From an uncultured Rivularia sp. (GTDB lineage Bacteria > Cyanobacteriota > Cyanobacteriia > Cyanobacteriales > Nostocaceae), in NCBI GenBank assembly GCA_963665115.1, contig OY762007.1, positions 448,001 to 512,000 on the forward strand: a stretch of 64,000 nucleotides of DNA. The letters are read 5' to 3'. Under the pieces are notes generated by a model. It ran no database searches, was not told where the DNA came from, and worked only from the letters and a program-made list of their open reading frames with translations. The position numbers and the translations under genes are program-made. Positions 23,478 to 39,600 of the stretch are shown piece by piece; position 1 is the first letter of the stretch, and every line of letters begins with the position of its first letter.

Positions 23478-26400
23478 TTACTTACTTCGACAAACCTTTA
23501 ATCTTTCCCGTACTTGGGGATTGCTATTTAAATAATCTTTTAACCAGTCGCATCCGCGTGTTAATAACCCGTCTAAATGATCAATCTGCCAAATTAACAC
23601 CTCATTTCCTTGAGGTTGATTACCTTGAACGTGCGCGAGTATGTATTTACCATCTGGGCTGAATTTGGCTTCAGTTATGAAGGTAGATAAATACTTATAT
23701 TCTGCAAGCTGCTTACCTGAAGTATCCCAAATTTGAAATTTCTTGTCCTTTGAAGCTGTGAGGATACGCTTACCATCCGGGCTAAATTTAGCATAGACAA
23801 TCGGACTTTGATGAGGTATTTCAACTAATTGTTTGCCATTCGTATCCCAAATAATTGCCGTATTGTTTGTGGAAGTCGCAATAATTCGTTTTCCATCTGG
23901 ACTAAAACTAGGGCTAAAAATATCTTGATTTGCTTTAATTTCTGATAACTTTTTACCTGATGTATTCCAAATGGTTGCTATTCTTCCATTACTTGCAACA
24001 ATACGTTCCCCATCTGGGCTAAAGTTAGCACCGAGATAACTATATTCACTTGCTGGAAACTCTACTATTTTTTCACCTGAAATATTCCACAAACTAGAAT
24101 AATTTTTGCCATCATAATCAAACTTAGCAATAATATATTTACTATTTGGACTCCAAGTCATACCTCTAGCTTTGAATGTAGAGATTAACTTTCCCGTATC
24201 CGACCAAATTCTTGATTTACCATCGTAAGTTGTAGTTAAAATATGCTTGCCATCTGGACTAAAAGCAGCATAATCTAATCCCTTTTCATGTCCGGAAAGT
24301 AACAGTAATTGTTTTCCAGATGTATTCCAAACACGAGCAGTTTTATCAACTGATGCTGTAACTATTTTTTTGCCATCTGGACTAAAATTAGCGCTACTAA
24401 CTATACCTGAATGTCCTTGAAATCTTGCTAACTGCTTACCAAACTTATCCCAAAGTAATACAGATTTCCAAGTTGGGGTAACTACATATTTACCATCCGG
24501 ACTCCAACTTGCTCCATTAATTTTATCTTTTGAATTAATGTTTGCTGTAACTACTGGTATTTCATCAGATAAATTCCAAATACGAACGTTTCTATCAAAT
24601 CCATAAGTAACAATATGTTTACCATCAGGACTCCAACGGGGACTTCTTTGATCTCCTGCTAATTCAGCGATTAAATCGGCAGATAAATCCCATGCTTTTG
24701 CAGCACCATCTCTTATATCCCATACTTTTATAGTGTCGTCGGTGGTAAAAAATTGCTTCCCATCAGGGCTAAATTCTGCATTACTATTTAATTCTTTTTG
24801 ATTTTTTATTTCTCTAATTAACCTACCAGATAAATCCCAAACATAAGTTTTCTCAGATGTGGTTACAAAGATACGCTGACTGTCGGGGCTAAAACCAGCA
24901 TCCGCATTCCCTGAACGATCATCTACTTTAAATCTTGCAATTTGTTTACCTGAAATATCCCAAACATAGGAATCATCAGAGTTAGTTAAAATATATTTTC
25001 CATTTGGACTCCAATAAGCGCTGCTAACAGCTTTTGTATGTCCTGAAAGCGCTTTTACTAATTTACCCGAAGTATCCCAAATACGGGCAGTTTTATCATT
25101 AGAAGCAGTCAGAATATATTTGCTATCCGGGCTAAAACTAGCGCTATTAACTGTATCTTTAAGTTGTAGTAATAAATTACCCGATAAATCCCAGATACGA
25201 ACTATTTTTTCATCAGAGCCACTAACCACACTTTTTCCATTTACAATTGTTTCAGTTTGTGGTTGTTGAGAAATAGTAATTATACGTTTCCCATCTGGAC
25301 TAAAACTGGCACTATTTACCCATTCTTGATGTTTTATTATCGCTACTTGTTTTCCAGAAAAGTCCCATATCCGAACGTTTTTACCATAAGAAGCAGTAAT
25401 AATATGTCTACCATCAGGACTAAATTCAGCCTTATAAACTCCATCTTTATGTCCTTTCAGTTCGGTTATCAGCTTACCCGACAAATTCCAAATTCTAGCG
25501 GTTTTATCTGTGGAACCAGTAATCAAAAACTTTCCATCATGGCTCCAATTCACAGTTGTAATATTGTCTTGATGGGTTGCAAATTGTTTTACCTCACGAA
25601 TATTGTTTGTTATTGTTTGCAAAGCTAAAAGCGGACTGGTTGCAGGATATTTTTCTAAGGAACGTCCATCTTGTACTAAATTTTTCAATCTTTGTCCAGC
25701 ATCCATTGCTGTTACTAAAGATTCAATTTGTTTGGTTTCAAACTGTTTTAAAGCTGTAACTCCTGCTCTTTCTAATTTTGTACCTTCTTGAGCTTCTTGT
25801 AATTGATGATTTGCTCCTATAAAAGCAATCGTAGCTCCAATCACAGAACAAATTAGAACGCCACCACCAATACGAATTTGTCGTTTAGCTTTATGTTGAG
25901 CTGTAGTTAAAGTATCATTTGCTTGTGCTAAAATGCGACTTTCTTCTTCTTGAATAGCTAATGCGGTAGTTATTTCTTGTTTTTCCAATTCCTGACTAGC
26001 ATTTAAAAACTGATAATCTTGTTTACTTAAACTTTTATCCGCAGCCCAAATATTAGCGTCTTCTAATGCTTTTCCTCGCAATAATCTAGAATCATCTTGA
26101 AAATTTGAAGTAACCCAAGCTGATAATGCTTCCGAATATGGTCTTAAATTCATAAGTTCTTTTTCTACCCAATTTAAATCAAATACTGTTGCATAAATAC
26201 GGTTGTAAACCTGTAAATACCCTTGATTTTCTACAACTAATCCTGATAGCCGTAATTCAATTTGTTCTGGACTATCATCAGCGGGTATTTGTCCTAATTG
26301 TAAAATTTTCTGATACAAACCAAGCAATGCACCTGTATTATGCTTGCTCCTTAAAATCCGATCTTTAATAGTTTTTAAATGCGGTGGTTCGTCAAAAGAT

Positions 26401-27233
26401 TCCCAATTGTCAATTATTTTCTGTCTGACAATATTTTCTACATCTTGATTTTTTAATCCTGGAAAACCTGCTAATAAATCGCATAATTTCTGTGTTAATA
26501 ATGGTTGCCCCCCAGTCCAATCCAAAACTTCTTTTAAAACAGCTTGGGGATTTTCAACTTCTTTAAATCCTGCTGCTAAAGGTGAAACTTCATCTATTTG
26601 AAAACCATTAACTTGAATAGCGCTACCAATATTAAAAGGTGTTCTAACTTTATCGGCTATTAAATCGCTTGGTGTTGCTACTCCGAGAAGCACAAAAGTA
26701 ATCCGATTAAATTCTTTGTTAAAATTACGCTTTTCATAACAGCTTCTAATCCAAGAGAAAAAGTCATCGCAGGGGAAATTTAAGCTTAAAATACTATCAA
26801 TTTCATCAATAAAGATAACTATTTTACTTTGAATTTTTTCTAATAATATTTCTTCAATAAATATATCCAAACGCTGTAAAGGTGATAATTCGCTGTTTTC
26901 CTTCCACGATGTTCTAATAAACTCGCTGGGGTTAGCTATACCAAAATTAGCAACCAACGTATAAACAATTCCTGCATACCACTGTTCTGGATTGATATCT
27001 TTACTACCCCTTCCAGAAATATCAATTGTTGTACAAGCGATTCCTTCAGCTTGCAATCGTTTGATGGTGCGAACCTGTAAACTGGTTTTACCCATTTGTC
27101 GGGAATTGAAAATATAGCAAAAGTTGCCTGCTTTGAGTTCGTTGTAAAGGTCAAAATCTGCTTTTCTAACTACATAACTGGGAGCATTTTCCGAAAGACT
27201 TCCACCAACTTTGTAAGAAAAATTGTTGTTCAT
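23478..27233 (-). CDS. AAA_35 (STAND-like) NTPase with TM helix and WD40 beta-propellers
   Basis: YKVGGSL, Walker A NSRQMGKT, Walker B IFIDEID, TPFNIG, WTGGQP; TM IGGGVLICSVIGATIAFIGA; about 14-16 diverged FSPDG/IWD WD40 repeats. Confidence 0.92.
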   Translation of the reverse strand: MNNNFSYKVGGSLSENAPSYVVRKADFDLYNELKAGNFCYIFNSRQMGKTSLQVRTIKRLQAEGIACTTIDISGRGSKDINPEQWYAGIVYTLVANFGIANPSEFIRTSWKENSELSPLQRLDIFIEEILLEKIQSKIVIFIDEIDSILSLNFPCDDFFSWIRSCYEKRNFNKEFNRITFVLLGVATPSDLIADKVRTPFNIGSAIQVNGFQIDEVSPLAAGFKEVENPQAVLKEVLDWTGGQPLLTQKLCDLLAGFPGLKNQDVENIVRQKIIDNWESFDEPPHLKTIKDRILRSKHNTGALLGLYQKILQLGQIPADDSPEQIELRLSGLVVENQGYLQVYNRIYATVFDLNWVEKELMNLRPYSEALSAWVTSNFQDDSRLLRGKALEDANIWAADKSLSKQDYQFLNASQELEKQEITTALAIQEEESRILAQANDTLTTAQHKAKRQIRIGGGVLICSVIGATIAFIGANHQLQEAQEGTKLERAGVTALKQFETKQIESLVTAMDAGQRLKNLVQDGRSLEKYPATSPLLALQTITNNIREVKQFATHQDNITTVNWSHDGKFLITGSTDKTARIWNLSGKLITELKGHKDGVYKAEFSPDGRHIITASYGKNVRIWDFSGKQVAIIKHQEWVNSASFSPDGKRIITISQQPQTETIVNGKSVVSGSDEKIVRIWDLSGNLLLQLKDTVNSASFSPDSKYILTASNDKTARIWDTSGKLVKALSGHTKAVSSAYWSPNGKYILTNSDDSYVWDISGKQIARFKVDDRSGNADAGFSPDSQRIFVTTSEKTYVWDLSGRLIREIKNQKELNSNAEFSPDGKQFFTTDDTIKVWDIRDGAAKAWDLSADLIAELAGDQRSPRWSPDGKHIVTYGFDRNVRIWNLSDEIPVVTANINSKDKINGASWSPDGKYVVTPTWKSVLLWDKFGKQLARFQGHSGIVSSANFSPDGKKIVTASVDKTARVWNTSGKQLLLLSGHEKGLDYAAFSPDGKHILTTTYDGKSRIWSDTGKLISTFKARGMTWSPNSKYIIAKFDYDGKNYSSLWNISGEKIVEFPASEYSYLGANFSPDGERIVASNGRIATIWNTSGKKLSEIKANQDIFSPSFSPDGKRIIATSTNNTAIIWDTNGKQLVEIPHQSPIVYAKFSPDGKRILTASKDKKFQIWDTSGKQLAEYKYLSTFITEAKFSPDGKYILAHVQGNQPQGNEVLIWQIDHLDGLLTRGCDWLKDYLNSNPQVRERLKVCRSK

Positions 27234-27252
27234 GATGTGATATTTATTTTAA

Positions 27253-27307
27253 GTTTGTAGTAGGGACTTTAGTCCTCTCCGGAAGGGCTTAAGCCCCTAC
27301 TACGAAC
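27253..27307. repeat. REPIN-like GTAG paired palindrome
   Basis: GTTTGTAGTAGGGACTTTAGTCCT...AGGGCTTAAGCCCCTACTACGAAC; a related, more degenerate copy is at 2304-2358. Confidence 0.75.
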
Positions 27308-27309
27308 AA

Positions 27310-28191
27310 TTAGATTCTATTTTTACTAATCAAAGCTTCTAATTGCTTCAACCTATCGTCAATTAATACTATTTCTGGATGAACTGGACTATACCTTTTT
27401 GAAAGTTGCGATTTTTGGACTTTCAAATCTTCCATTTTTCGATAAGCAGCATTATTTATTAGGCTTTTAACTGTGCCTTTATATGGCTGCGGTTGCGTAT
27501 TTTCAAATTGTTTATATAAATCCTCAAGTTTAACTTCAAAATCTTGAATCATTGGATGTTGAGGTGATAATCTTGCTGAATTTATTGCTTTTTCTACTTC
27601 TATTTTGGCGATTGATTTTAAAATATCGGCAGTGGTAAGATTAGGCTCTGAAAGCGATACCCCTAATTGTGATAATTCTGTCCTAACTTCAGCGAACTTT
27701 TCTTTACTAATTCCTTCCATATGACCATTTCCAAAAACCCCATTTAACTCTTGCTGCAATATTTTATCTGCTGCTTTATAATCTTTAATAGCGTTTTCTT
27801 TATCTCCTAAATCTCGATACAGATTAGCTCGACGAATATAAGCTTCAGTATTAACCAAATCATTATCATCAATGTATTTATTCAAATTTAAAATTGCTTT
27901 TCGTTTTTCACCAGATTTTTCATAAGCCATAGCTTTTTCATCGTATTTCCTCCGCTCTTGGCTCAACACAGCTTTTTGATGTTGGTTGAGTATGTAACCA
28001 AAGCACCTTTTTGGAACTCCTGCTATCTTCAAGATGTTCTCTGCTGAATCAAAAGTTTTTGGATTTACGATTTTACATTCATGGTAATCATCGGGAACTG
28101 AAATCTGTCCAAGTAAAGGTATAGAAAAACCTAGAAATAAAATAGATGATGTATGAGCAATTATAGAAGTTATAGAGAATGGAAATTTCAT
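27310..28191 (-). CDS. Secreted TPR protein with two (Y/L)SPxHP helical-hairpin repeats
   Basis: Signal-peptide-like N-terminus MKFPFSITSIIAHTSSILFLGFSIPLLG; TPR AYIRRANLYRDLGDKENAIKDY; LSPQHP and YSPVHP motifs. Confidence 0.75.
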   Translation of the reverse strand: MKFPFSITSIIAHTSSILFLGFSIPLLGQISVPDDYHECKIVNPKTFDSAENILKIAGVPKRCFGYILNQHQKAVLSQERRKYDEKAMAYEKSGEKRKAILNLNKYIDDNDLVNTEAYIRRANLYRDLGDKENAIKDYKAADKILQQELNGVFGNGHMEGISKEKFAEVRTELSQLGVSLSEPNLTTADILKSIAKIEVEKAINSARLSPQHPMIQDFEVKLEDLYKQFENTQPQPYKGTVKSLINNAAYRKMEDLKVQKSQLSKRYSPVHPEIVLIDDRLKQLEALISKNRI

Positions 28192-28254
28192 TATTATTTA
28201 ATCGATAGCTATTTTATTTACGATTAGGATTAGCGTTTGTAGGTTCCACTAAAA

Positions 28255-29272
28255 CTACATCCGATTACGGCTAATTAATGCTTTTAATTGCTCTATTTGA
28301 TTAGTAATGAAAATTCTTTCGGGATGCGTTGCAGTAAACTTTTTTGTAAGTTGCGATCGCATTACTTTCAAACGTTGGATTTTTATATGAGCAGCAGCCA
28401 CTATTATGCCTTTTTCTATTTCTTCATCTGGCTGTACTTGTGTATTTTCAAGTTGTTTATGCAAGTCCTGAAGCTGAGCGTCAAAATGCTGAATTAATGG
28501 GTTTTGAGGTTTGAATTTTGCTAAATTTAATGCTCGTTCGACTTCTATTTCAGCAATTGATTTTAAAATCTTAGCAGTGGCAAGATCCGGTTCTGGAACT
28601 GATACCCCTAGTTGTGATAATTCAGTTCTAACTTTATCCATCATTTCTTGATACATGGGATCTATACCACTAATCGCAAAAAGCATATTGAAATCTTCCC
28701 GCAAGATTTTATCTGCTACTTTGTAATCTTGAATAGCATTATTTTTATCTCCCAAATCCCGATACAGATTAGCTCTGTAAATATAAGTCTCAGCTCCAGC
28801 CTTAGCAGAGGAAACCACTATCACGAATGTATTTAGTCAAATCTGAAATTGCTTTTTGTTTTTTACCTAATTTTTCATAAGCCCTAGCCCTGTTCAAATA
28901 TGCAGCGTCACTCGAATCCAATCTACCTGTATTTATATTAATTACTTCGGTATAATCCTTAATTGCGGCTTTGTAATTCCCAATTTGAAAGTAAGCATTT
29001 GCACGTTGATAGTAGGGAGCTTCTACTTCAGGATTCAGTTTAATTGCTTGGGTGTAAGAAGAAATTGCAGCTTGTGAGTCTTTTTCGCACCCCATTTGAA
29101 ACAATCCCATTCTTATGAAGTCATCTACTGTATTAAGTTGTGGTGGCTTAGGAATTTTGCATTCATCAGGATTATTAGAAGCTAGGATTGGTGTAACTAA
29201 TGGTAGAGCAATTAGCAGCAAAATAGATGATGTATGAGCAATTATAGAAGTTATAGAGAATGGAAATTTCAT
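28255..29272 (-). pseudogene. Secreted TPR protein, paralog of 27310-28191, split by a 1-bp frameshift at about 28812
   Basis: Same first 18 residues as the paralog; removing one base joins DSG to SSAKAGAETYIYRANLYRDLG; C-terminal half aligns with the paralog. Confidence 0.8.
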
Positions 29273-29436
29273 AATTAAGTAATTTAGAATAATTTTCAGT
29301 AAAATTAGATCGGTAGTGCGACCATCTTGGTCGCTAGTAATACTCCACTAATCTCATTTAACCCCAACGATATCTGAGTTGACATGGGAGTATATCGAGT
29401 TCGTATCGACTTTGTGACGAGATTGAAAATAACGCA

Positions 29437-29525
29437 AACCTAACCCCCAACTCCTTCCCTACGAGGGAAGGGGAGTAACAATTAAAGCCTCTCTCCTACA
29501 AGGAGAGAGGTTTGGAGAGAGGTCA
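29437..29525. repeat. Dispersed palindromic repeat (AACCTAACCCCC...CCTCTCTCC type)
   Basis: Hairpins CCTTCCCT-ACG-AGGGAAGG and CCTCTCTCCT-ACA-AGGAGAGAGG; reverse complement matches 59663-59740. Confidence 0.8.
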
Positions 29526-29530
29526 AAAAT

Positions 29531-30805
29531 ATGCCACGCTCAGTTCAAGTACGTTCTGAATTTATCTCTAAGGTAAAGTCTGCTCTACCCCGTAATGGTT
29601 ATATTCGTCAAACTGATTTAGCTGAATATTTGCAAATTTCTCAATCTACTATCAGCAGTTTTCTCAACGGTAAACCTGTTGATTATTTGAATTTTAGAGA
29701 AATTTGTCGGGCTTTAAGTTTGGAATGGCAAGATATCGCGGATTTAATGCTAGAAACTTCACCTGTAATTTCAAATCCAGAAATATCGAGTTCCAACTCT
29801 TTAGAACATCCATCTGGATTAGTGCCGTTAGATTCGCCATTTTATGTTGGGCGATCGCCAATTGAAGAACGATGTTACCAACAAATCAACCAACCCGGTA
29901 CTTTAATTAGAATAAAAGCTCCCAGACAGATGGGGAAAAGCTCGCTTCTAGCAAGAATTATTGATAAATCGCAATCTCAAAAAGATCGTACTGTAACTTT
30001 AGATTTTCAACTGGCAGCGCAGCAGATTTTTGTTAATTCAGATAAATTTCTACGTTGGTTTTGTGCCAGCATCGGTTTAGCTTTAAATATTCCTAATAAA
30101 ATTAACGAATATTGGGATTTAGCTGAAATTGTTGGTAGCAGCATGGCTTGTAAAGCTTATTTTGAAGAGTATTTATTACCAACTATCGATAATCCGCTAA
30201 CTCTTGGTTTGGATGAGGTTGATAAAGTTTTTGAATATCCAGAAATTTATCGAGATTTTTTTGGGTTGCTGCGGGCTTTACATGAAGAAGGTAAACGACG
30301 TGAAATTTGGAAAAGGCTGCGATTAATAATTGTACATTCTACAGAGGTTTACGTTCCCCTCGATATTAATCAATCACCATTTAATGTTGGTTTATCGATA
30401 GAATTACCCGAATTTAATAGCAATCAAATTTTAGATTTAGCACAAAGACATCAACTTGATTGGAATAATACCGAAGTTGAAAAAATCATCAATTTAGTCG
30501 GTGGACATCCGTTTTTAATTCGTCTTACTCTGTATCATATAGCTAGTGGAAATATTACCTTAAATCAAATATTAGAAAATGTAACTAATCCCAAAAGCAT
30601 TTACGCAGAACATTTACGCCGCCAAAGTTTAATTCTGACGCAACAACCGGAATTAGCAGCGGCTATGAAAGATATAGTTAATAACAACAATACTGAACTA
30701 TCAACTGTTACTAAATTTAAGTTACAAAGTATGGGATTGGTTAAATTGCAGGGAGATAGTGTATTTCCAAGGTGTAATTTATATCGTCAGTTTTTACGAA
30801 TTTAG
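29531..30805 (+). CDS. XRE-type HTH fused to an AAA_35 NTPase
   Basis: QTDLAEYLQISQSTISSFLNGKPV HTH; Walker A KAPRQMGKS; Walker B LGLDEVD; SPFNVG; GGHP; KLQSMGLV winged-helix-like tail. Confidence 0.9.
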   Translation: MPRSVQVRSEFISKVKSALPRNGYIRQTDLAEYLQISQSTISSFLNGKPVDYLNFREICRALSLEWQDIADLMLETSPVISNPEISSSNSLEHPSGLVPLDSPFYVGRSPIEERCYQQINQPGTLIRIKAPRQMGKSSLLARIIDKSQSQKDRTVTLDFQLAAQQIFVNSDKFLRWFCASIGLALNIPNKINEYWDLAEIVGSSMACKAYFEEYLLPTIDNPLTLGLDEVDKVFEYPEIYRDFFGLLRALHEEGKRREIWKRLRLIIVHSTEVYVPLDINQSPFNVGLSIELPEFNSNQILDLAQRHQLDWNNTEVEKIINLVGGHPFLIRLTLYHIASGNITLNQILENVTNPKSIYAEHLRRQSLILTQQPELAAAMKDIVNNNNTELSTVTKFKLQSMGLVKLQGDSVFPRCNLYRQFLRI

Positions 30806-31198
30806 TTTTACTTTTAATTCACACTGTTGAAAAATATAATTTACTGCTGCAAACAACTTATCTAAATCATTATATCTTTATCAAACTAGTTGGCACACCT
30901 GCCGGTTAAGTGGACTATTTCAATTGGTGGGTTACGTCTGTTTTATGCCGTTTGACCAAATTATCGGTACCTTCTTGAAATACTGGGAGATACACTCAGA
31001 TCCTGTATCAGTATTAATTACGCAACTTCCAAGACTGCATACCCTCCACACCACACAGATATATAAAAAATTAGGAAAGCGAAATTTCCAAAACTGAATA
31101 ACCTCGAAACACCCAAACCTATAAATAAATAGAACACAACACCAACGTGCATTTACTATCCCGATAATTCATTAACGATTACAACAAGAGGAACGCAA

Positions 31199-31741
31199 AT
31201 GAAAGGTTTACAAGCAGCATTCGCACTAGTTTTCAGCTTCATAATAATTAGTCCCAGAGTAAACGCTCAAACGCCCGATACTAACGTCAAACCACAAATT
31301 GAGAAATTGCAAGTTGCATCAACCCCAAATCAGAATTTGACACCAAACCGGAAAGCACTCTCTTATTTAAAACAGGGACACACTTTTTTGAAAAATAGAA
31401 ACTATCCCGAAGCAGTAAAGGCTTTTGATCAAGTAATCAAAATTCAACCAAACAATCAATATGCTTACCAAGGTAAAGGAGCTACTTACCTTCGCACGGG
31501 ACAATTTAAACAGGCAAAAACCGATTTAGATAAATCGATTCAACTAGATAATTCACTCTCTTATGCTCACTATTACCGGGGATTAGTTAATATTGCATTA
31601 GGTAATAAAGATAATGCAAATACAGATTTTGAAACAGCAGCGAATCTATTTGAGAAAGAGGGAAACACAAAATTAGCTAAATTAAGTCGTGAGTTCAAAA
31701 AGCATTACTCAGAATATTTACGCCGTCAGAGTTTAATTTGA
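31199..31741 (+). CDS. Secreted TPR protein whose 3' end runs into a duplicated AAA_35 tail
   Basis: Signal peptide MKGLQAAFALVFSFIIISPRVNA; three TPRs; RBS GAGGA; final residues YSEYLRRQSLI come from the AAA_35 repeat. Confidence 0.8.
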   Translation: MKGLQAAFALVFSFIIISPRVNAQTPDTNVKPQIEKLQVASTPNQNLTPNRKALSYLKQGHTFLKNRNYPEAVKAFDQVIKIQPNNQYAYQGKGATYLRTGQFKQAKTDLDKSIQLDNSLSYAHYYRGLVNIALGNKDNANTDFETAANLFEKEGNTKLAKLSREFKKHYSEYLRRQSLI

Positions 31742-32885: not shown

Positions 32886-33411
32886 TCACCTGTAAACGCG
32901 GCGAAACTCAGATGGAGAAAGACGCATGGGATCTTCGGGGTTCCAAATTCCTTCTCCCATCAGTCTAGACCAATGTTGTGCGCGTTCCAAACGGGAATCG
33001 TATTTGTGATTTGGCGATCGCGCTATGAATATTGCGTGTCCCTTCTTTAATTAGTTGTTCGTTTATTAATGTGTCATCTTTCCATACGTAAGCTAAGGTT
33101 CTGCCAAATTTATCTTTAGCTTCTAAGTCAAATTCTAATCTGACGGGTGAAGATTTATCTTGAATTAACTCCCTCAAACGTTCTTTGGAAGCTTCTCCCC
33201 AAGGTCGATGACGTGTAGAAGGGGCGCTAATACCAGTCAAACGCACTTCGGAAATTAAAGTAGGCTGTTCCCGAAAACCCATAACTTGCAAAGTTTGTCC
33301 GCTAACAACCCGCACCACTTTAATCGGCACCATTCCCGCTTGAAATGTATCTTTTTTAGCTTGGCACCCCAGCAGCAACAAGCAACATAAGACAATAACT
33401 ACTGACTTCAT
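32886..33411 (-). pseudogene. Thermonuclease (SNase-like) lipoprotein with 1-bp frameshift at about 33040
   Basis: Lipobox LLGC; DKFGRTLAYVW; removing one G restores KEGHAIFIARSPNHKYDSRLERAQHWSRLMGEGIWNPEDPMRLSPSEFRRVYR*. Confidence 0.8.
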
Positions 33412-33893: not shown

Positions 33894-33943
33894 AATGATT
33901 TCAGATTTCGGATTCGGTAATTATAGAATTATTCTCTCAAGGA

Positions 33944-33972
33944 TTGCAGTTTATTTGATTTCAATGTAAGAT
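33944..33972 (+). promoter_or_regulatory. Sigma70-like promoter for tRNA-Ser
   Basis: TTGCAG-N17-TAAGAT ending about 22 bp upstream of the tRNA. Confidence 0.55.
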
Positions 33973-33994
33973 GTCTTCTTGTGGCACTCCACCT

Positions 33995-34081
33995 GGAGAG
34001 GTGGCCGAGTGGTTTAAGGCGCAGCACTGGAAATGCTGTTTACTCGAAAGGGTAGCGAGGGTTCGAATCCCTCCCTCTCCG
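33995..34081 (+). tRNA. tRNA-Ser(GGA)
   Basis: Acceptor GGAGAGG/CCTCTCC-G; D arm GCCGAGTGGTTTAAGGC; anticodon arm CAGCA-CTGGAAA-TGCTG; long variable arm; GTTCGAATCC T loop; CCA not encoded. Confidence 0.96.
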
Positions 34082-34403
34082 TTTATAAATTTAAGTTATG
34101 TTATACCCACGTACACAATCGAGTATGTGGGTTTTTTGCTGAGTATAATCTCGAAACTTCAAATTTCAAGCTCTGAATCGAACATTCAACTATTGCGATC
34201 GGTAATGTTGTGACTTGTATCACTGAAGGTAACTTGTAAGCGCGGTCATTATGTAAAAGTGATGATGACCTTAAGGAAAGCTTATGGTAAAGCTGCAATT
34301 GAGAATTAACATTTCGATTAACGGGACTTAATGTCCAAGGAGTGTAATTCCTTAAGCGTTCAAAGTTGGGTTTGCGGATTTTTGTAGCTGTACAGGTAAA
34401 AGA

Positions 34404-36672
34404 ATGAAAAAGTTGGCATTGCTGATTGGGGTAAGCGAATATGAGTACGACTTGAATCCCCTACCAGGTGCCCTTAAGGATGTTGATGCAATCCAACGTG
34501 TTTTACAACATCCAGATATGGGTGATTTTTCCCCAAATAATATCAAACTATTGAAAAATCCGCAGATACCAAATATGGGAATGGAAATTGAGAAAATTTT
34601 CTCTAATTGCCAGAAGCATGATTTGGTGTTGCTATATTTTTCCGGGCATGGGATTAAAGATGATAATGGCAATCTTTATTTAGCGAGCAGTCAAACTTGC
34701 AAGCATCCTAACGGGCAATTGATTACTTCAAGCACTGTCGCTGCAAGTTTTATACACAATATCATGGATAAAAGCCCTTCTCGGAGGCAAGTAATTATTC
34801 TTGATTGCTGCTTCAGCGGTGCTTTTGCTCGCGGTATGACGGTAAAAAATGATGGTGATGTAGATATTAAAAATCAATTGGGAGGGGAAGGAAGGGCAGT
34901 TTTAACTTCTTCTACTTCTACTCAATATTCTTTTGAGGAACAGGCATCCAATCACTCAATTTATACGCGCTACCTTGTCGAAGGAATTGAAAATGGTAAA
35001 GCCGATTTGGATGGTGATGGTGTAATTTCAGTTGATGAACTGCATGAATATACTCGCACTAGAATGCAAGAAGTTGCACCCAAAAGTAAACCTGAGATTT
35101 ATGCTTTCAAGGAAGGTTATAAGATTCAGTTGGCAAAAGTATGTCTAACTCAACAGCTAATTCCGATTGCTAAAAATCAAATAGGTTTCGGTGAATTAAA
35201 GTTGGGAAGAATGCTGCAAGAGGAAAGCGCTGAAGATGAATTGCAAGTTGATTATCTACCTAATTTTTTAGAACCGTTTGATTTTTTGATTAAAACTTTA
35301 ATTACCAAACTCACTGAAAACTTTTTTACTAACGATCGAGCAAATAATTTATCTATTGATTCTGAATTTGAAATTCAAATATTAGAAATTATCCGAGAAG
35401 CTTCTGAAGCCGATTTTGTATTTATACTCGAAAATGATAGTCAGGATAACTGTTTTGTTAAATCACAAAGTAATTTAGCAGAAAATATTGAGAAGAATGG
35501 CTATATTAATATACTAAACACAATAATTTTTCCAATTATCTCTCATGAATCAGTTTTTAATCCCTCGCATCACGGCACTTATAAAATTCATGAATATGCT
35601 AAAGGTTCTGCCAATGCTTTTGTGATGATACCGTTAAAAATGCCTCCGAATGCTGAAATTATGGTAATTTGCGGTGTGCCTCGAAATTCGCATTTATTAG
35701 GAAATGCCTACGGTAGGATTTTATCTAGTTTTTATCAAAGCAGTCAAACATTTTTACAACCTGCATTAGTAGAAGCCGCTATTATTGATTCTTTAAAAAA
35801 GGATTTTAAATTTGTATCTGAATCGTTATACGAAAGACGTTTTCAACTATTTTGCGAACGGTTGCAGAAAATGGTTGTTTATTTTGAACCCTTAATTTGC
35901 ATAGATGCCAATGAATTTTTTATCAGTGGTTGGGAAGCTTTAGCTAGAGATCCTGAAAGTTTAACTGCTCCCGTCGATCTATTTCAAGCCGCAGAATTAT
36001 GGGGTTCTCGATTCAAAGTTGAGTTAGACCAATATTTTCTGAAAGTTGCAGCAAAAAGCTATAAAGAAGCTAGGAAGTTAAAACAAAGAAGACTGAGTGA
36101 TGTTGTACCATTGTCAGTTAATGTATATCCGGAATCATTAGTTAGAACGGAATATTTTGAAACTGTTAGAGAAATTTTGGCAGAAGATATTATTTCACCA
36201 CGAAATTTGGTCTTAGAAATTTCTGAAAAATCAGAATTACCAGAGTTTGACGATAGTATTCGATTAGATAATCCTTTAGCTTTTTTCAAAAATAAACTTT
36301 TAGAATACGTACATCAATTTAATATTCGATTTGCTATCGATGATTTTGGAGTTGGTTATTCTTCAGTTTCTCGACTAGCTGGTTTGAACCCATGTCATGT
36401 TAAAATTGACCGCGAAATCCTGCATCATCAATCTAGCGATCTAATTATTCGTTTCGTTCATCAAATTGTTAAAGATAATAATTTATATCCACCGAATGTA
36501 ATAGTTGAGGGTGTAGATGAAGAAACTCCGATTAGTTTATATCAATTAAAAAAAATAGGTGTAACTTATATTCAAGGGCATATTGTTGGTAAACCAGAGT
36601 CAGAAGTTTATCGTCTCAGCCAGGAAAAATATATAGAAACTCAAGAAAATGATTTCAGGTGAGATTGTTTAA
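34404..36672 (+). CDS. Caspase-like (peptidase C14) - GAF-like - EAL fusion protein
   Basis: KLALLIGV, YFSGHG, ILDCCFSG (His/Cys dyad); EAL motifs WEALARD, SVNV, LEISE, AIDDFGVGYS, KIDR, VEGVD, IQG. ORF as given stops at 36662; removing one A at about 36638 would give IELKKMISGEIV* at 36672. Confidence 0.88.
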
Positions 36673-36745
36673 GGGAAAATCTTTAATTTTCGGAGTTATT
36701 GCTCTTATAATTGTTTATGTAAGTATAATCTCGCAATAGGGCTGT

Positions 36746-37126
36746 ATGATTACTGACTTGACTGACGTGAAGCTGACTATTTCTTTTGTAGATCCAGATT
36801 TAGACGAGGAAGAAAAAGAAGCAGAGGTAATTAAGCTGCTTGCACAAATGAAGAATTTAGATGAAGTTGAAGAAGTTGGGCGGGTTGCCGAAGCGAGTGT
36901 ACCTCAAAACAGCAAGTCAATATCGGGTTATATCGCTGGAAAAGTTTGGACTTTCGTGAAATCTCAGAATATTAAACAAGTATGGGGATTTTTGAGCGAG
37001 CGTCTTGGTAATAAAGTTATTGAAGTAGAAGCAGAAGCTAATGGTAAGAAAATTAAGGTAAAAGCTAAAAATTCCCAAGAGTTACAAGAAGCAGTTAAAG
37101 CAGTGCAGGAATTTATTAAAAGTTAA
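36746..37126 (+). CDS. EACC1-like (effector-associated constant component) small protein
   Basis: DPDLDEEEKEAEVIKLLAQM...PQNSKS...FLSERLGNKVIEVEAEANGKKIKVKAKNSQEL pattern, recalled as the partner of cyanobacterial caspases; adjacent and co-oriented with the caspase gene. Confidence 0.72.
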   Translation: MITDLTDVKLTISFVDPDLDEEEKEAEVIKLLAQMKNLDEVEEVGRVAEASVPQNSKSISGYIAGKVWTFVKSQNIKQVWGFLSERLGNKVIEVEAEANGKKIKVKAKNSQELQEAVKAVQEFIKS

Positions 37127-37203
37127 ATAAGATGTAGTTCGATTTTGACCGGCTGAACCTTAGTTTAACCAGTATTTTAGAATTGATTTTTCATCTAAAA
37201 CTC

Positions 37204-37463
37204 TCTAACATAAACAATGGTAAGTTTCTTGTTGAGTTATTTCATCAACTGCTGTTTGACGATAAGCCTTGTATCTATTACCTGAAGGGGCAAGCCAAGC
37301 AGAGATTTTCAAAGATACTTTCCCCTCCTGCCGAACGAGGAACAATATGTTCTAATTCAAAGGTACTTATTGTCAGGGATTCATTTGTACGACAATAAGC
37401 ACAACAGTTATTAAAATGATTGCGAATTCGCCGTTGTAACTCTACAGCAATATAAACACTCAC
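37204..37463 (-). pseudogene. HNH endonuclease, frameshifted and truncated
   Basis: CAYC...EHIVPRSAGG...NLCLACP; frameshift at about 37288, then SGNRYKAYRQTAVDEITQQET in another frame before an early stop. Confidence 0.75.
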
Positions 37464-37474
37464 GCGATTTCACA

Positions 37475-37804
37475 TTACCCCTGAAGATGATTTAAGCTAT
37501 ATCTAGCTCTAGTTTTTAGAATATTTAGCTGGTCAACCTTTGTCAATAAACTATCTAAAATTTCACTTTCATTATTTGACAGTTGATTATCGCTATTTCT
37601 TGCTAATAAATCATTTAATTCAGTTTGAGTGCTTGTAGATAACTTAATATCCGCTAAAGCTTGTAATTCATCTATACTTAAATTAGTTAAAAGTTCAGAA
37701 TCTACCACCGATTGATTCATCAATTTATGGTAAGTGTCCAAATCTAACAATACGCCTATTCTTTCTCCTTGGTTGTTGGTAAGATACTGTACTGATTCAG
37801 TCAT
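37475..37804 (-). CDS. Antitoxin-like hypothetical protein paired with the HNH gene
   Basis: QYLTNNQGERIGVLLD...ELNDLLARN...LNILKTRARY; immediately upstream of and co-oriented with the HNH gene. Confidence 0.65.
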   Translation of the reverse strand: MTESVQYLTNNQGERIGVLLDLDTYHKLMNQSVVDSELLTNLSIDELQALADIKLSTSTQTELNDLLARNSDNQLSNNESEILDSLLTKVDQLNILKTRARYSLNHLQG

Positions 37805-38168: not shown

Positions 38169-39600
38169 GTGAGTCAGTCATTTGATTACGATTTAGCGAT
38201 CGTCGGCGCTGGAGTAGGTGGACATGGCGCTGCCTTACACGCCGTTAGCTGTGGATTAAAAACTGCAATTATTGAAGCTGGTGATATGGGGGGAACCTGC
38301 GTTAACCGTGGTTGTATCCCCTCGAAGGCGTTACTTGCTGCTTCTGGAAGAGTGCGGGAGTTACGCGATGCTTACCATCTCAAGTCGATGGGTATTCAAA
38401 TTGATAACGTAAGATTTGAAAGAAATGATATAGCAAACCATGCGAATAATTTGGTGGCGAAGATTCAAGGAGATTTAACTAATTCTCTTAAACGTTTGGG
38501 TGTTGATATTATTCAAGGTTGGGGTAAAGTTGCCGGAAAACAAAAGGTAACTATTGATACTCCTGACGGTGAAAAAACTATTACAGCTAAAGATATTATT
38601 CTTTCTACTGGTTCGGTTCCTTTTGTCCCACCGGGGATTGAAGTTGATGGTAAAACGGTGTTTACCAGCGACCAAGCGGTAAAGTTGGAATGGTTGCCGC
38701 AATGGGTAGCAATTGTTGGTAGCGGCTACATCGGTTTGGAATTTTCCGATGTTTACTCGGCTTTGGGTTGCGAAATCACCATGATAGAAGCTTTACCCCA
38801 ATTAATGCCGGGATTTGACCGCGATATTGCTAAACTTGCCGAAAGAGTATTAATAAATCCTCGCGATATTGAAACTTATTCTGGAATATACGCTAAAAAA
38901 ATTACTCCTGGTTCACCAGTAATTATTGAATTAGCTGATTTTAAGACTAAAGAAGATGTAGACGTATTAGAAGTTGATGCTTGTTTGGTTGCTACCGGAA
39001 GAATTCCAGTCACGCAAAACATTGGCTTAGATTCGGTGAGTGTTGAATTAGATAGACGCAAGTTTATTCCGGTAAATGATTCGATGGCAGTACTCTCTCA
39101 AGGGGAAACCCGTACCGCATTTATGGGCGATTGGCGATGCTACTGGCAAAATGATGCTGGCTCATGCTGCTTCCGCTCAAGGTATTACCGCCGTGGAAAA
39201 CATCTGCGGTAGAACAAAGGAAATTGATTATGCAAGCATTCCCGCAGCAGCATTTACTCATCCAGAGATTAGCTATGTGGGAATGACGCAGGAACAAGCT
39301 AAAGAAAAAGCCCAAACCGAAGGCTTTGAAGTTGGAGTTAGTAAAAGTTATTTTAAAGGTAATTCCAAAGCTTTAGCAGAAGGAGAAGCCGACGGAATCG
39401 CCAAAGTTGTTTATCGCAAAGATACCGGAGAAGTGCTTGGAGTCCACATCTTCGGACTTCACGCAGCCGATATCATCCATGAAGCAAGTGCGGCGATCGC
39501 CAATCGTCAAAGCGTAAATTCACTAGCCCATCTAGTCCACGCCCATCCCACACTTTCCGAAGTCTTGGATGAAGCATATAAAAGAGCGGCAGTCAGTTAA
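38169..39600 (+). CDS. lpdA: Dihydrolipoamide dehydrogenase (apparent +1 frameshift at about 39107)
   Basis: [19 protein letters not shown] redox disulfide, [20 protein letters not shown]; the two ORFs join as [16 protein letters not shown] if one A is removed. Confidence 0.93.

Follow-up and report, generated by a model that had tools for sequence, protein, structure and literature searches.

A caspase fused to GAF-like and EAL domains in Rivularia: a variant EACC1-caspase module with a candidate c-di-GMP input

What might a caspase be doing in the same polypeptide as a domain of the type that degrades cyclic diguanylate (c-di-GMP)? The question is raised by a gene of 752 codons in a stretch of 64,000 nucleotides, here the window, from the complete genome (8.69 Mb) of an uncultured Rivularia sp. 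(GCA_963665115.1, contig OY762007.1, positions 448,001 to 512,000). Its product joins a caspase, a central GAF-like and a C-terminal EAL domain, and it is followed by a gene for a 126-residue protein resembling EACC1, the small partner of a type of bacterial caspase. The reading favoured here, with a probability of about 0.4, is that the GAF-EAL half would gate the caspase and that the caspase would cut an EACC1-like pore protein, killing the cell in which this happens.

Neither the fusion nor the adjacency of the partner is a mis-assembly, since one contig of run X2 spans both: it covers 33900-37224 (tRNA, fusion and partner) with 0 substitutions and 1 gap. The fusion, proposed in an earlier note made from the letters of this DNA, is also conserved in homologues. 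Runs X4 and X5, both of other strains and the latter from another study, cover the partner gene as well. Because the base at 36637 is missing in 3/4 runs, an assembly slip has probably produced the last ~7 residues of the 752-residue open reading frame (ORF); it does not touch the EAL domain. For the contig joint from 37224 to 36526 no matching repeat was found anywhere in the window.

In a Pfam scan of the 752-residue protein, PF00656 is matched at residues 2-234 (E 1e-23), and the model NF047832, 'caspase, EACC1-associated type', is matched with 175 bits against a cut-off of 140, the only match over that cut-off in the genome. The His/Cys dyad remarked on earlier is intact, with His82 in SGHG and with Cys136 as the second Cys of DCC. 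Asp26 and Asp134 are acidic pocket residues from which a preference for Arg or Lys is predicted. A match to EF-hand_5 inside the caspase reaches 19.3 bits, below the cut-off of 25.9, and an EF-hand-like pattern is present in 37/70 fused caspases, all of the EACC1-type clade; such a loop could add a Ca2+ input. At the other end of the protein PF00563 is matched at residues 487-731 (E 1e-27), and the EAL motifs proved complete, all ten catalytic positions (E511, R515, N573, E605, E608, D646, D647, K667, E702 and Q724) being present in a fold that agrees with solved EAL structures. The domain would on these grounds be an active c-di-GMP phosphodiesterase.

The middle domain has no Pfam match. Folded alone with AlphaFold, it gives a model with a predicted local distance difference test score (pLDDT) of 89 and a predicted template modelling score (pTM) of 0.86, in which a five-stranded sheet between helices is followed by two helices. 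Compared with 48,161 solved chains, the model has top Z scores of 9.1-9.6 that are tied among GAF, longin and roadblock: the longin match has Z 9.6 with a root mean square deviation of 2.9 over 119 aligned residues, and the GAF match to 3cit has Z 9.1 with 4.3 over 137, the GAF matches taking in one more N-terminal helix. Foldseek and Atlas lean weakly toward GAF, the Atlas score of 0.86 being a lead only. 'GAF-like', first a call by eye, seems a fair name for a modelled fold of this GAF/profilin-like kind.

The full-length model (pLDDT 88.7, pTM 0.65) has confident domains with a low-confidence linker between them; this linker is flexible and contains basic residues. In the connector that leads into the EAL domain D462 is invariant, and five further residues are kept at 91-98%. 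In comparisons with 10 close relatives the caspase has a ratio of nonsynonymous to synonymous substitution rates (dN/dS) of 0.06-0.20 and the EAL domain one of 0.10-0.19; the GAF-like domain has 0.13-0.27 and the linker 0.16-0.93. Each domain is thus under purifying selection, the caspase as strongly as the EAL domain, and the GAF-like domain is the fastest-changing folded domain, with a dN ~2-3x that of EAL in more distant relatives.

How widely is this arrangement kept? The C-terminal 503 residues retrieve 450 relatives, and a search of 1.84 billion proteins with the middle domain alone gives 66 clusters (50% identity). When 59 of the cluster representatives were scanned, with seven short fragments left out, PF00656 was found in 35, EAD4 in 4, TIR in 1, EAL alone in 16 and nothing in 3; a caspase profile made for this family adds 3 caspases from the EAL-only group, for a total of 38/59. 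GGDEF, REC, PAS and kinase domains occur in 0/59 of them. There are also CHAT-GAF-EAL forms in three loci (L120 and L166 by scan, L121 by similarity) and an EAD7 form in L165, and the N-termini of the family are confined to death or conflict types. Caspase, CHAT and TIR are proximity-activated. By the names of their sources, caspase-fused members come from Cyanobacteria, an Anaerolineae bacterium and Engelhardtia mirabilis. The GAF-EAL unit is a distinct family, with members in three phyla (Cyanobacteria, Chloroflexota and Planctomycetota). The GAF-like domain is present in 80/301 genomes of the host family, nearly always in single copy, and in 8/251 genomes of the class; plasmid and phage records give one plasmid match and no phage match. 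A metagenome scan returned 80 loci, 6 of them of the family and the remainder ordinary EAL genes. Of 253 rows, 249-253 retain each catalytic position of the EAL domain, and 134/136 retain the catalytic Cys of the caspase; the row sets overlap between protein lists and loci.

Reading of 81 loci gave 38 that are caspase-fused, 38 caspase-less, 1 with EAD4, 2 with CHAT and 2 that are cut or broken. The architecture search for a caspase with an EAL domain that had been suggested at the outset thus bears out a conserved fusion, though one from which the caspase is absent in nearly half of the loci. In six of these (L077, L082, L087, L128, L129 and L132) a caspase-less GAF-EAL gene has one or two free-standing caspase genes 85-569 bp downstream on the same strand, possibly a coupling in trans. 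Two further loci may be mentioned for their neighbors. On a metagenome contig of 61% GC (L165:2755-7125) the EAD7-GAF-EAL gene lies 3′ of an alpha/beta hydrolase gene, a pairing that looks conflict-system-like and outside cyanobacteria-like DNA, and in L120:4206-9398 a CHAT-GAF-EAL gene is divergent from a gene for a coiled-coil and TIR protein.

What, then, would the caspase cut? The partner is one of a large family of cyanobacterial proteins (74 matches; present in 82/121 genomes) that is tightly linked to this caspase type. Of the 29 loci that score best, 25 have a caspase on the same strand as their next gene (broken in one of them), 1 has a gene that is TIR-like by eye and 1 an inverted caspase fragment, and in 2 the next gene is off the contig; at 9/10 further loci of the same genus the partner is directly upstream of a caspase. 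The EACC1 model PF19953 is matched at E<=0.1 by 10/47 of its relatives, at best with 1.5e-4, and Atlas, with 0.89, places the partner in a cluster with 35% EACC1. Its nearest relatives (56-64% identical) mostly adjoin caspases nearest this one (66-71%, with one exception at 54%), and the relatedness of partner and caspase gives a rho of 0.52 over 28 rows that include two duplicates and kin that are not independent. The gene is the sole member of its family in this genome, where a search with PF19953 returned nothing. The place at which relatives have a second, canonical cassette of partner and caspase is deleted here (G000:C1:7320983-7321238). A 31-residue match after the partner (E 0.025) was considered as a caspase remnant and is treated as none.

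Position 57 of the partner is Lys or Arg in 35/35 locus rows (two of them duplicates) and Lys in 45/47 alignment rows. A cut after Lys57 would yield fragments of 6.4 and 7.7 kDa; those of a characterized EACC1 are of 5.7 and 7.1 kDa (Evans 2025, bioRxiv 10.1101/2025.11.14.688446; this and the other published work is cited from the parts of each paper that were available). Lys57 is the predicted cleavage site, and it would fit the Asp26 and Asp134 of the caspase because C14 proteases other than those of animals prefer a basic P1 residue (PMC5756287). A small-residue patch is aligned in the partner but carries a Lys. Prediction of a complex between a caspase dimer and the partner scores 0.15 against a mark of 0.32 and weighs neither way.

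Several observations count against the favoured reading. Scored directly on PF19953 the partner has 12.4 bits, under the cut-off of 23.6, and even the best member of its family, which lies upstream of a caspase-GAF-EAL gene, reaches 22.7 (model positions 2-95). The earlier call of an EACC1-like partner is borne out by the context of the family more than by a direct domain match, and the label is used here in that sense. The cut in the characterized EACC1 was reported at an Asp and not a Lys (Evans 2025), and the maximum 19-residue hydropathy of the partner, 0.30 in its putative membrane segment, is the lowest of 35 rows (the others being 0.49-1.42). The gene also lies 3′ of the caspase gene here, not 5′. 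Among 14 close-relative loci it is absent from 12, unreadable at a contig end in 1 and in the other, L012, a pseudogene with an internal deletion and a stop. Of the 38 caspase-fused loci 5 have it directly upstream, 2 downstream and 31 (two of them cut short) not within ~5 kb, and one caspase-less locus, L103, has a partner-family gene downstream. The idea of a constant pair of caspase and partner at this locus is not supported by these counts. Across whole genomes the association is weak, the partner family being present in 30/34 with an EACC1-type fusion and in 26/37 with the caspase-less form (Fisher p 0.08), a count in which four type-A carriers are left out and kin are not independent. 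Within the caspase Ala23 stands at what is probably the position where metacaspases keep an auxiliary Cys. No recurrent cyclase or defence neighbor was seen by eye among the sequences of clusters present in at least 3 of the 81 loci. Furthermore, the 38/81 loci without a caspase keep an intact GAF-EAL, which implies a function for the phosphodiesterase apart from the protease.

Do the parts then belong together at all? In a different reading, the GAF-EAL protein would be a phosphodiesterase of the usual signalling kind, encoded at a fixed locus, with the caspase as a shuffled passenger beside the tRNA-Ser gene and the partner as a decaying relic. Apart from the broken and missing partners just described, caspases have been lost repeatedly with remnants left, partner-caspase cassettes and toxin-antitoxin-like genes turn over at the site, and caspases shuffle among C-termini: within the EACC1 type those fused to GAF-EAL do not form one clade (approximately unbiased test, p 8e-81). 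In 13/38 caspase-less loci the last strand of the caspase is still seen by eye before the linker, and in a FastTree phylogeny, with long branches flagged, fused forms dominate the deep branches and the three phyla; because of these two findings the fused state looks ancestral, and the caspase-less forms look to have arisen by loss. Two caspase clades are in use, separated by a branch of ~1.9 changes per site when the corresponding distance for their GAF-EAL halves is ~0.1, and the NF047832 cut-off is missed by 10/10 of those tested from one clade and passed by 7/8 from the other; at least one wholesale caspase replacement in the family is likely on this account. A swap of caspase specific to the genus was also considered and not adopted, the grouping being rejected when extra caspases are included (p 3.5e-6) and not on the same 17 proteins (p 0.36). 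Against a loose mosaic speak the prevalence of the fused state at depth, the purifying selection on the caspase, equal to that on EAL, and the replacement N-termini, which are always death or adaptor domains and never ordinary signalling inputs. That the parts are a mere mosaic is held to be unlikely.

If they do work together, the GAF-EAL half could control the caspase or be released by it, as the earlier note had recognized. EAL activity is tied to dimerization and inhibited by Ca2+ (PMC5301497), and an EACC1 caspase, modelled as a dimer, is under the control of its C-terminal sensor (Evans 2025). In the gating reading the GAF-EAL half would act as a c-di-GMP-degrading trigger, and the ligand or dimer state of the EAL domain, tuned by a GAF ligand and possibly by Ca2+, would switch the caspase in one direction or the other. 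The activated caspase would cut an EACC1-like protein after Lys57, and the cleaved fragment, as a predicted membrane pore, would bring about the death of the same cell. The substrate would be either the product of the adjacent gene or a family member from another locus; it need not be the former because most relatives have no local copy and yet a family member elsewhere.

Release would run the other way: a self-cut in the linker would free GAF-EAL, which would drain c-di-GMP, low levels of which are themselves lethal in Nostocales through CdgR, and the EAL domain would be the effector. Auto-proteolytic freeing of the C-terminal domain was proposed for such systems (Kaur 2020, PMC7159879), orthocaspases do process themselves (PMC5756287) and Anabaena is killed when c-di-GMP falls below about half of the wild-type level (PMC13075795). 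The linker is of a suitable kind, flexible and with basic residues, and no adjacent partner would be required. Yet caspase-free GAF-EAL genes with full catalytic sets are stable in 38/81 loci, so that the module on its own has no inherent toxicity; in the TIR form there is no protease that could set it free; and the C-terminal domains that have been tested act as sensors (Evans 2025). Release is held to be quite improbable. Because EACC1 caspases carry C-terminal sensors and free, intact GAF-EAL forms are common, the reading of a nucleotide-gated caspase fits better than that of a released enzyme.

Sensing of what, however? Tested EACC1 systems are triggered by phage (Evans 2025), and the GAF-like domain could sense a phage product or a metabolite of infection and turn on the caspase, with the EAL domain merely resetting or monitoring the c-di-GMP pool. 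The fast change of the GAF-like domain, the patchy distribution of the family (8/251 genomes of the class) and the TIR and EAD fusions are in keeping with such a guard. The dN/dS of the GAF-like domain nevertheless stays at 0.13-0.27, many genomes have the gene once only and at a fixed place in the chromosome, recurring defence neighbors are lacking and mobile records are limited to the plasmid match, and PADLOC gives the fusion a generic caspase match alone; an anti-phage guard is accordingly rated a doubtful alternative. For gating by a nucleotide, c-di-GMP is the likely one rather than cyclic GMP-AMP (cGAMP), which the earlier note had also entertained, because 15 matches to GGDEF and none to a SMODS cyclase were found in the genome. 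A link to a cyclic oligonucleotide-based antiphage signalling system and cGAMP was dropped for the same want of a SMODS match.

Coordinates of the gene and its parts are given in the table. A ferredoxin gene and tRNA-Ser(GGA) stand upstream in 40/81 loci and in 14/14 of the close relatives, no integrase was seen by eye in the window or among the neighbors of the loci and no repeat of the tRNA end was found. The suggestion that the tRNA marks a mobile island fails on this fixed synteny and on the lack of integrase and repeat. The tRNA-Ser site itself is a stable address, and small cassettes turn over on its flanks: additional caspases, toxin-antitoxin-like genes and other pairs of partner and caspase. 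In L134, L140, L146 and L155, of other genera, the ferredoxin-tRNA-Ser site has a partner and a caspase with other C-terminal domains; it is a recurring address for EACC1-type modules. Downstream in the window there is a RelB-like gene at 37220-37804 (PF18506, weak), and at the junction near 37220 both the usual neighbor, an HNH-like fragment by eye, and the PemK/MazF-like toxin-antitoxin pair of relatives are missing. At 23478-31741 a gene for an AAA_35-like ATPase with WD40 repeats and an HTH-AAA gene face apart around several TPR genes (by eye). lpdA is split in two ORFs at 38169-39600, probably by an assembly error, base 39106 being missing in 3/4 runs, and the last ~24 codons of a thermonuclease-like gene at 32965-33411 are in a frame other than that of relatives, probably another assembly slip. 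A promoter scan was at chance level (13 vs 12).

Table. Features of the caspase-GAF-like-EAL locus, in positions of the window
Feature	Position	Strand	Remarks
tRNA-Ser(GGA)	33994..34082	+	fixed upstream neighbor; ferredoxin gene beyond
caspase-GAF-like-EAL fusion gene, 752 aa	34404..36662	+	actual C-terminus probably differs by a few residues
EACC1-associated-type caspase domain, residues 1-245	34404..35138	+	NF047832, conservation, dN/dS
EF-hand-like loop within caspase, residues ~199-213, possible Ca2+ site	34998..35042	+	EF-hand_5 below cut-off
variable low-confidence linker, residues 246-284	35139..35255	+	pLDDT 41-52; dN/dS 0.16-0.93
GAF-like (profilin-like) domain, residues ~285-451	35256..35756	+	predicted structure comparison
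conserved helical connector into EAL domain	35757..35861	+	E457, D462, K465, Y476, R479, F483
EAL domain, residues 487-735, complete catalytic set	35862..36608	+	PF00563, alignment, fold match to EAL structures
extra base vs 3/4 runs	36637..36637	.	likely assembly error shifting last codons
EACC1-like small protein, 126 aa	36746..37126	+	Lys57 codon 36914-36916, predicted cleavage site

No trigger is known for the many orthocaspases of filamentous cyanobacteria, and regulated cell death in these organisms has been described without a demonstrated molecular pathway (PMC7965980). The fusion offers a caspase with a candidate small-molecule input and, together with its partner, a candidate substrate in which a cut site is predicted; the natural variants with and without caspase or partner can serve as controls. 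Were the coupling true, c-di-GMP, a housekeeping signal of lifestyle, would have direct control over a caspase and a pore, and EACC1 systems would extend beyond the sensing of phage proteins. A bolder proposal, rather unlikely as it stands, is that a dedicated GAF-EAL clade represents the first case in bacteria of c-di-GMP being read as the input to a caspase-to-pore death pathway, the clade being plugged into caspase, CHAT, TIR and death-like adaptor outputs in three phyla, and that in filamentous cyanobacteria it kills single cells for filament fragmentation (necridia, hormogonium release) or for the containment of infection.

Where does this leave the locus among known systems? A literature search, most subscription papers being outside its reach, found no study of a caspase-GAF-EAL fusion or of a c-di-GMP-gated caspase, and within that reach the GAF-like domain, the range of the family, the apparently exclusive fusion to death domains and the predicted cut at Lys57 were not found in print. 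The combination of caspase and EAL is itself already tabulated, as a rare architecture with 2/473 cyanobacterial orthocaspases in Table 1 of a 2021 survey of accessory domains (PMC8283722), the available text of which mentions neither a GAF-like domain nor a partner and gives no range of the family, other N-termini or mechanism. A word search for 'EAL' in PMC7475262 and PMC3501461 found nothing. In YciR/PdeR of E. coli, a trigger enzyme with an active EAL domain, binding and degradation of c-di-GMP were proposed to control another output (PMC3715855); the likeness is the active EAL domain as trigger, suggested here by the architecture, and the difference lies in what is controlled, a cyclase and a transcription factor acting in trans in E. 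coli and here, by the favoured reading, the fused protease. LapD-LapG offers another comparison. There a protein with an EAL domain governs a cysteine protease in response to c-di-GMP; the EAL domain of LapD is degenerate, and the protease, which is not a caspase, is a separate periplasmic protein with an adhesin as substrate.

The closest comparison is with the EACC1-caspase system itself, defined as a pair of genes, of which that for EACC1 is the 5′ one, with up to 50 kinds of C-terminal domain (Kaur 2020) and later found to act by cleavage of EACC1 and pore formation, with sensors at the C-terminus (Evans 2025). The word 'EAL' is absent from the main text and two supplementary files of the former, which also do not contain 'EAD4' and so probably omit the architecture tables, and an EAL fusion is not named in the text of the latter, the figures or supplements of which may show one. 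Shared with that system are the N-terminal caspase subfamily with its intact dyad, the variability of the C-terminal domain and a small partner of ~125 residues from the family that precedes such caspases. The present locus differs in a C-terminal module, GAF-like with EAL, that the available texts do not name; in a partner that is 3′, sporadic and under the Pfam cut-off; in a conserved Lys/Arg at the likely cut, when Asp was reported there; and in being fixed rather than island-like. Because the gene order fails and the EACC1 call is borderline it is not a canonical member, and it is probably a variant EACC1-caspase module with what is probably a nucleotide-handling sensor.

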